A program made the position numbers and the translations under genes. Source: Escherichia coli (lineage in GTDB: Bacteria; Pseudomonadota; Gammaproteobacteria; Enterobacterales; Enterobacteriaceae). Taken from it: a DNA stretch of 1,727 bases. Of this stretch, positions 1 to 1,727 are shown piece by piece. The stretch lies in assembly GCF_003334815.1 (NCBI RefSeq), contig NZ_QOWO01000094.1. The stretch is one strand, 5' to 3'. Within the stretch, counting starts at the first letter, position 1. Each line of letters opens with the position of its first letter. Under the pieces are notes generated by a model. That model was not told the DNA's origin. It searched no databases and saw nothing but the letters and a program-made list of their open reading frames with translations.

Positions 1-1727
1 CTATGACAACCGTGGCCGGTTAACCTCGGTGAAAGACGCACAGGGCCGTGAAACGCGGTATGAATACAACGCCGCAGGCGACCTGACTGCCGTTATCACC
101 CCGGACGGCAACCGGAGCGAGACACAGTACGATGCGTGGGGAAAGGCGGTCAGCACCACGCAGGGCGGGCTGACGCGCAGTATGGAGTACGATGCTGCCG
201 GACGTGTCATCAGCCTGACCAACGAGAACGGCAGCCACAGCGTCTTCAGTTACGATGCGCTGGACCGGCTGGTACAGCAGGGCGGCTTTGACGGGCGGAC
301 GCAACGTTATCATTATGACCTGACCGGAAAACTCACACAGAGTGAGGATGAGGGACTTGTCATCCTCTGGTACTACGATGAATCGGACCGTATCACTCAC
401 CGCACGGTGAACGGCGAACCGGCAGAGCAGTGGCAGTATGATGAGCACGGGTGGTTAACCACCCTCAGCCATACCAGTGAAGGCCACCGCGTGTCGGTCC
501 ACTACGGCTATGACGATAAAGGCCGCCTGACCGGCGAATGCCAGACGGTGGAGAACCCGGAGACGGGGGAACTGCTGTGGCAGCATGAGACCGGACATGC
601 GTACAACGAACAGGGGCTGGCAAACCGCGTCACGCCGGACAGTCTGCCGCCGGTGGAGTGGCTGACCTACGGCAGCGGCTATCTTGCGGGCATGAAGCTG
701 GGCGGGACGCCGCTGCTGGAGTTCACGCGCGACCGCCTGCACCGTGAGACGGTGCGCAGCTTCGGCAGCATGGCAGGCAGTAATGCCGCATATAAACTGA
801 CCAGCACATACACCCCCGCAGGCCAGTTACAGAGCCAGCACCTGAACAGCCTGGTGTATGACCGTGACTACGGGTGGAATGACAACGGCGACCTGGTGCG
901 CATCAGCGGCCCGCGACAGACGCGGGAATACGGCTACAGCGCCACGGGCAGGCTGGAGAGTGTGCGCACCCTCGCACCAGACCTGGACATCCGCATCCCG
1001 TATGCCACGGACCCGGCGGGCAACCGGCTGCCGGACCCGGAGCTGCACCCGGACAGTACACTCACAGTGTGGCCGGATAACCGCATCGCGGAGGATGCGC
1101 ACTATGTCTACCGCCACGATGAATACGGCAGGCTGACGGAGAAGACGGACCGCATCCCGGCGGGTGTGATACGGACGGACGACGAGCGGACCCACCACTA
1201 CCACTACGACAGCCAGCACCGCCTGGTGTTCTACACGCGGATACAGCATGGCGAGCCACTGGTCGAGAGCCGCTACCTCTACGACCCGCTGGGACGGCGA
1301 ATGGCAAAACGGGTCTGGCGGCGGGAGCGTGACCTGACGGGGTGGATGTCGCTGTCGCGTAAACCGGAGGTGACGTGGTATGGCTGGGACGGAGACAGGC
1401 TGACGACGGTGCAGACTGACACCACACGTATCCAGACGGTATACGAGCCGGGAAGCTTCACGCCGCTCATCCGGGTCGAGACAGAGAACGGCGAGCGGGA
1501 AAAAGCGCAGCGGCGCAGCCTGGCAGAGACGCTCCAGCAGGAAGGGAGTGAGAACGGCCACGGCGTGGTGTTCCCGGCTGAACTGGTGCGGCTGCTGGAC
1601 AGGCTGGAGGAAGAAATCCGGGCAGACCGCGTGAGCAGTGAAAGCCGGGCGTGGCTTGCGCAGTGCGGGCTGACGGTGGAGCAACTGGCCAGACAGGTGG
1701 AGCCGGAATACACACCGGCGCGAAAAG
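1..1727 (+). CDS. Rhs-family YD-repeat protein, internal core fragment (partial at both ends; reading phase has the first complete codon at nt 2, last complete codon ends at nt 1726). Polymorphic toxin shell/core region; the toxin tip is not in the window.
   Basis: Seen in sequence: the frame starting at nt 2 is open across the entire window (575 codons, no stop), which is why it is missing from a stop-to-stop/ATG-based ORF track. The translation begins [50 protein letters not shown]... and contains repeated xxGxxxRYxYDxxGRL(I/T) units, e.g. [79 protein letters not shown]. Established knowledge: this is the Rhs/YD-repeat signature, and the protein closely matches the E. coli Rhs core as I remember it. 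The paralog (rhsA/B/C/D-type) cannot be assigned from memory, so the symbol is left empty. Confidence 0.95.

Follow-up and report, generated by a model that had tools for sequence, protein, structure and literature searches.

Descriptions of E. coli Rhs cores with their YDxxGRL(I/T) repeats go back to about 1990, and since 2013 solved structures of several Rhs cocoons have become available. Enterobacterial Rhs elements are composed of a G+C-rich core that contains the YD repeats and an A+T-rich tip, with Gly recurring at intervals of 9-11 residues (PMC2935791). At the structural level, the repeat unit of Tse5 was described as a hairpin with a DXXGR turn (PMC10684867), and for RhsA the formation of a cocoon, its autoproteolysis and its loading onto VgrG were reported (PMC8765631). 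The spiral beta-sheet shell built from YD repeats is also found in the TcB/TcC components of Tc toxins and in metazoan teneurins, the shells of the latter being uncleaved (PMC8765631).

Here, we analysed a stretch of 1727 nucleotides from an E. coli genome (assembly GCF_003334815.1, contig NZ_QOWO01000094.1), hereafter called the window, in which a preliminary description made from the letters alone had noticed regularly recurring Tyr-Asp codon pairs. Among the described systems, the closest are the E. coli clade I core ORFs (RhsA-E of K-12 and the vgrG-linked copies at the rhsE locus), with which the window represents essentially the same gene: the copies of E. coli W60 and of ETEC share 99.9% nucleotide identity with it, whereas rhsE of K-12 has no counterpart of window nt 1 to about 454. 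Like the E. coli Rhs elements described before, the window is part of a G+C-rich core with YDxxGRL(I/T) repeats (PMC2935791, PMC10684867). [quoted passage not shown] However, they are only about 25-30% identical to the window, differ in their N-terminal domains and toxins, and have no sequence match to a predicted helical linker of about 80 residues with which the window ends. More distantly, TcB/TcC and the teneurins have the same YD-repeat shell (Foldseek E values of 1e-15 to 1e-20; PMC8765631) but are 11-16% identical to the window, differ in delivery (TcA translocator) or have a scaffolding role, and are not linked to VgrG.

Gene content and genomic context

Almost certainly, the window derives from the interior of a clade I RHS element core gene of E. 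coli, of the rhsE-locus type, and the periodic Tyr-Asp pairs are the motifs that form the turns in the YD (Rhs) repeats of this gene. The frame starting at nt 2 of the + strand is stop-free across the whole window and forms an ORF of 575 codons (nt 2-1726) that runs off both window ends and, over all 1727 nt, is 99.9% identical to genes annotated as 'RHS element core protein'. Of the 5426 complete E. coli genomes, 3872 contain a match, and the median number of matching places in a genome is 6. The corresponding NCBIfam equivalog model (NF041261, 'RHS element core protein') fits the window end to end, covering model positions 583-1156 of 1261; its score of 1261 bits is below the cut-off of 2000 bits only because the fragment represents 46% of the model, and the full W60 protein scores 2770 bits, above this cut-off. 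Nothing in the analysis contradicts the RHS core identification.

In the 1407-aa protein of W60, the window corresponds to residues 579-1153, with two amino acid differences, namely Cys for Arg at aa 180 (nt 539-541) and Gln for His at aa 194 (nt 581-583). The Arg at aa 180 is also found in both aligned E. coli paralogs (within GERQTV), and Cys180 looks specific to the strain of the window. The window has a GC content of 63.3% and a GC3 of 77.9%. Opposite the Rhs frame, a stop-free antisense ORF of 285 aa with a TTG start was observed (nt 827-1684, minus strand), for which no NCBIfam match was found. Most simply, this long ORF is a by-product of the GC-rich composition (63% GC, 78% GC3) of the coding strand of the real gene.

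Neither gene end lies in the window, and what is said here on the vgrG linkage, on the autoprotease motif and on the toxin tip refers to the near-identical W60 copy. In W60, the gene order is ansP, yncG, yncH, vgrG, rhs, ydcD, ISAs1-type transposases and pptA, and these flanks are those of the rhsE position in K-12. The vgrG gene (TIGR03361, E 1.5e-187) ends 66 nt upstream of the rhs gene. In the encoded Rhs protein, a PAAR motif at the N-terminus was detected only weakly (E 0.13), and DUF6531 was matched at E 1e-18; PF03527 (RHS) follows directly after the window end, and TIGR03696 (Rhs_assc_core) is matched at aa 1181-1258. At the end of the core, the sequence PIQVIDPMGL fits the autoprotease motif PxxxxDPxGL, and the tip behind it, assigned to Pfam DUF6973 (E 1e-11; positions 7727-8488 of the W60 locus sequence), is a putative toxin domain. 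The GC content is 60-69% in the core and 27-41% in the tip and the downstream DNA, and this succession of a GC-rich core and an AT-rich tip is the classical layout of a composite Rhs element. Positions 8001-11500 of the W60 locus sequence show a sharp GC drop and contain a frameshifted ydcD, yncO, a decayed ISAs1 transposase and an intact ISEc5 (H-repeat) transposase.

At the corresponding site of its chromosome, K-12 has a 5'-truncated rhsE pseudogene (positions 3891-5939 of its locus sequence) that matches only window nt 455-1727, at 99.84% identity. It starts at about window nt 443-455, so that the seven YD units of greatest regularity are missing, and no vgrG gene precedes it. The existence of this truncated copy raises the question of whether the window is itself a decayed or truncated rhs copy, in which the YD periodicity would be a fossil, and the frameshifts in the W60 neighbours ydcD and the ISAs1 transposase point in the same direction. 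However, the window extends the unbroken frame by 454 nt beyond the 5' truncation of K-12 rhsE and differs from the intact W60 gene at two codons only, and in 3861 genomes a place covering at least 80% of the window was found. A pseudogene is very unlikely.

Tyr-Asp codon pairs and repeat units

The regularly spaced Tyr-Asp codon pairs of the window are real. Scanning the whole window for TAYGAY hexamers gave 11 occurrences, eight of them (nt 2, 128, 188, 251, 314, 374, 437 and 509) exactly where the preliminary description had placed Tyr-Asp pairs and three further on (nt 857, 1205 and 1280). All 11 are in the single open frame starting at nt 2 of the + strand, and the count in the other frames is 0. 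Together with a variant unit, the first eight delimit nine regular YD-repeat units of 20-24 codons (nt 2-571, + strand), which start at nt 2, 65, 128, 188, 251, 314, 374, 437 and 509 and for which the positions, the statistics, the Pfam RHS_repeat matches, a profile of upstream units and the structure model provide the evidence. The variant had been reported as YEY at nt 62. While a variant unit does exist there, the placement was slightly off, as nt 62 is the start of GAATAC (Glu-Tyr) in the middle of Y-E-Y-N (nt 59-70), and the pair that is in register is the Tyr-Asn at nt 65, within YNAAGDL.

The nine units have lengths of 21, 21, 20, 21, 21, 20, 21, 24 and 21 codons, and the measured gaps of 20-24 codons (60-72 nt) agree with the spacing originally proposed (about 60-72 nt, 20-24 aa). 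In the first 173 aa, the YD dipeptide occurs 8 times versus 1.2 +/- 1.0 times in shuffled sequences, with a count of at least 8 in 0 of 5000 shuffles. Likewise, when nine sites were placed at random, all gaps were within 20-24 in 0 of 200000 trials. The consensus of the units is Y-D-x-x-G-R/K-L/I/V-T-x-x, followed by about 4 residues and G-x-x-x-x-Y/W. With regard to the original statement that each pair is typically followed by Gly and Arg-Leu/Ile, position +4 is Gly in seven of the nine units (Asp in the other two), position +5 is Arg in five and Lys in two, and position +6 is Leu, Ile or Val in eight.

The units were also recovered with family profiles. Pfam PF05593 (RHS_repeat) gave four matches with E <= 0.001 within aa 1-178, plus six weaker ones. 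The matches in this part are at aa 1-37, 43-78, 63-100, 84-113, 105-138 and 146-178, those within aa 84-138 being weaker, and weak matches occur further on at aa 292-322 and 369-409. The TIGR01643 model (YD_repeat_2x) was matched with an E value of 2.5e-26 and 91 bits, versus a cut-off of 15.8. A profile built from the nine units of the window was discarded as circular and replaced by an independent one, made from five YD units of the homologous W60 protein that precede the part covered by the window. This upstream-unit profile recovered the window units at nt 2, 65, 188, 251 and 509, four of them with at least 5 bits versus 0.01 per shuffled sequence; the units at nt 314, 374 and 437 were recovered weakly. 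Both of the checks that had been proposed for the repeats, internal-repeat detection and a search with RHS-repeat profiles of the PF05593 type, were positive.

The periodicity had been described as visible at the nucleotide level. This is the case for the codons of the conserved residues, but not in the sense of a DNA-level array, as no tandem DNA array was detected in the whole window by Tandem Repeats Finder, even at the lowest score threshold of 30. The direct-repeat families are short (16-24 nt, 67-88% identity) and anchored on the conserved YD codons, and a repeat search with a seed of 7 gave only families of 16-40 nt, some of them YD-anchored and many chance-like in GC-rich DNA. When the units are anchored on Tyr, their nucleotide identity is 38%, versus 29% +/- 6% for random in-frame pairs of 60 nt from the same ORF, and their amino acid identity is 24%, concentrated in 4-5 columns. 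Moreover, the Tyr-Asp codons vary synonymously (TACGAT four times, TATGAC three times and TATGAT once). In these ancient repeats, conservation is limited to the residues forming the turns, which is why the DNA shows recurring codon pairs and no DNA repeat. What recurs thus belongs to the protein, is old and has been preserved at a few structural (turn) positions.

An origin of the periodicity in a recent tandem duplication of DNA, minisatellite-like and prone to slippage, would require no selection on the protein fold, and the short direct-repeat families on YD codons, for instance those at nt 2, 437 and 509 (67-71% over 24 nt), could be taken as its traces. Yet such a duplication is at odds with the empty Tandem Repeats Finder output, the low identities between units, the different synonymous codons among the units and the unit boundaries, which are retained in betaproteobacterial homologs at about 30% identity. 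The probability of a recent duplication is, in our judgement, negligible, and the DNA tandem-repeat reading was rejected on the basis of the Tandem Repeats Finder result and the unit identity statistics.

Structure model and comparison with solved shells

The structure of the 575-aa fragment was modelled with AlphaFold2 from a shallow alignment of 14 sequences, which contained E. coli paralogs and Rhs genes of Burkholderia, Paraburkholderia, Cupriavidus, Rahnella, Acinetobacter, Proteus, Pantoea, Cronobacter and Eleftheria, collected by tblastn from plasmid records. Three of the Rhs-bearing 'plasmid' records (NZ_CP077849.1, NZ_OL790812.1 and NZ_CP104448.1; two from Acinetobacter baumannii and one from Proteus mirabilis) are 3.7-4.1 Mb long and are probably mislabelled chromosomes. 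Since such long PLSDB records are probably chromosomal, a plasmid-borne location of Rhs should not be read from these matches.

The model has a mean pLDDT of 81 and a pTM of 0.68, with a pLDDT of about 90 over the first 220 aa, and contains 41 strands up to aa 494. Each of the nine regular units is predicted as strand-turn-strand, with pLDDT values of 87-95. At each of 20 YD-type sites in the model, a strand ends on the Tyr, a five-residue turn D-x-x-G-(R) follows, and the next strand begins from the Leu, Ile or Val. In the model, each unit of about 21 residues is, therefore, one beta-hairpin, and a second, Gly-containing turn leads into the next unit. Taken together, the roughly 20 hairpins between nt 2 and about nt 1483 are predicted to form part of one antiparallel sheet with the Rhs-shell fold. 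The beta-hairpin register that had been suggested from the codon pairs is supported by this model, which superposes on solved Rhs cocoons.

In a Foldseek search of the PDB, the Rhs cocoons were ranked first (8cp6, 7q97 and 8qja, the last with a TM score of 0.70), followed by teneurins and TcB/TcC. The solved Rhs shells were also matched by sequence, with phmmer E values of 2.3e-54 for Tse5 (8cp6) and 6.7e-36 for RhsA (7q97), and further sequence matches among solved structures were 8qja, Tse15, RhsP, Tre23 and teneurin-like proteins. As the fold is common to several kinds of proteins, and the Foldseek E values are about 1e-17 to 1e-20 for teneurins and about 1e-15 to 1e-16 for TcB/TcC, it might be asked whether the window encodes another class of YD-repeat protein (Tc toxin TcB/TcC, teneurin-like, or a wall-associated toxin of the WapA type) instead of a T6SS-type Rhs protein. 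The best matches in both sequence and fold are, however, all T6SS Rhs effectors, a gene with 99.9% identity to the window directly follows vgrG, and the equivalog model NF041261 fits it from end to end, which makes membership in another class extremely improbable. The interpretation of the codon pairs as YD repeats of an Rhs shell is, in turn, supported by the profiles, by the structure model and by the 99.9% match to RHS core genes.

The regularity had been reported to be strongest in the first 520 nt or so and to degrade afterwards. It is the literal YD dipeptide and the even spacing that fade, while the underlying repeat runs on to about nt 1483. In this part of the window (nt 572-1483, + strand), the DSSP assignment of the model, weak Pfam matches and the conservation of turns indicate a degenerate YD-repeat sheet with eleven more YD-type hairpin turns, spaced by 20-47 codons. 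The turns are located at about nt 602 (YNEQG), 668 (YGSG), 809 (YTPAG), 875 (WNDNG), 935 (YSATG), 1007 (TDPAGN), 1115 (HDEYG), 1205 (YDSQH), 1280 (YDPLG), 1385 (WDGD) and 1442 (YEPGS), and at each of them DSSP assigns strand, turn and strand in the model. Several turn residues of this part (D337, A339, N341, D373, G376, Y427, D428 and G431) are invariant across distant Rhs proteins in the 14-sequence alignment, and the alignment to Tse5 reaches aa 495 of the window. With nine regular and eleven degenerate ones, the total predicted for the window is about 20 hairpins; for Tse5, 40 hairpins have been reported.

Predicted helical linker downstream of the repeats

The last YD hairpin is separated from the Rhs-associated core domain, which starts just past the window, by a non-repeat linker (aa 496-575; nt 1487-1727, + strand). 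Helices are predicted by the model at aa 498-515, 526-540, 546-554 and 559-566, with pLDDT values below 50 at aa 496-524 and 568-575. For nt 1487-1727, the Pfam search gave no match, and the same was true for a sequence search of the PDB at E <= 1; the sole NCBIfam match of the linker is NF041261 itself, at model positions 1076-1156. In distant homologs, the alignment stops at about aa 490-505. The length of the linker, counted from the last hairpin (xPLxRID) to the start of the Rhs-associated core (YYFHxD...), is about 8 residues in Rahnella, about 15 in B. multivorans, about 45 in B. plantarii and about 82 in E. coli. The linker is the sole part of the window without a direct explanation from known structures. 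One reading, albeit a speculative one that we consider rather unlikely, is that it constitutes a functional module found only in Rhs cores of the E. coli type (clade I). As for its role, the linker could, for example, line the shell from within and hold or release the toxin, or serve as a handle on the outside.

Proposed function of the encoded protein

By analogy with the solved Rhs proteins, the sheet of hairpins would spiral into a closed shell, or cocoon, and homology suggests that this shell encloses the variable C-terminal toxin. Inside the shell, the aspartyl autoprotease in the Rhs-associated core domain (PxxxxDPxGL) may release the toxin by cleavage, and a type VI secretion system would then carry the loaded shell, mounted on its VgrG spike, into a neighbouring bacterium. 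The basis for this sequence of steps is published structural and experimental work on Tse5, RhsA and Tc toxins, together with the vgrG gene beside the near-identical W60 copy. Many rhs-carrying E. coli strains, K-12 included, are not known to have a type VI secretion system.

Implications

The YD repeats reported for this window are correct but ordinary, being already known, and the YD periodicity as such admits of no new interpretation. As the same sequence is annotated in thousands of genomes, the observation has little weight as a discovery. Its value is one of calibration, in that a structural repeat of the protein level was recognised from codon pairs alone, with the right coordinates and in the right family. 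For the Rhs protein, the analysis means that the repeat extends about 960 nt past the part in which the eye can discern it, is constrained only at the turn residues and ends at a non-repeat linker. Should this linker indeed be a functional module of the clade I cores, it would be one that is absent from the description of every solved Rhs structure.
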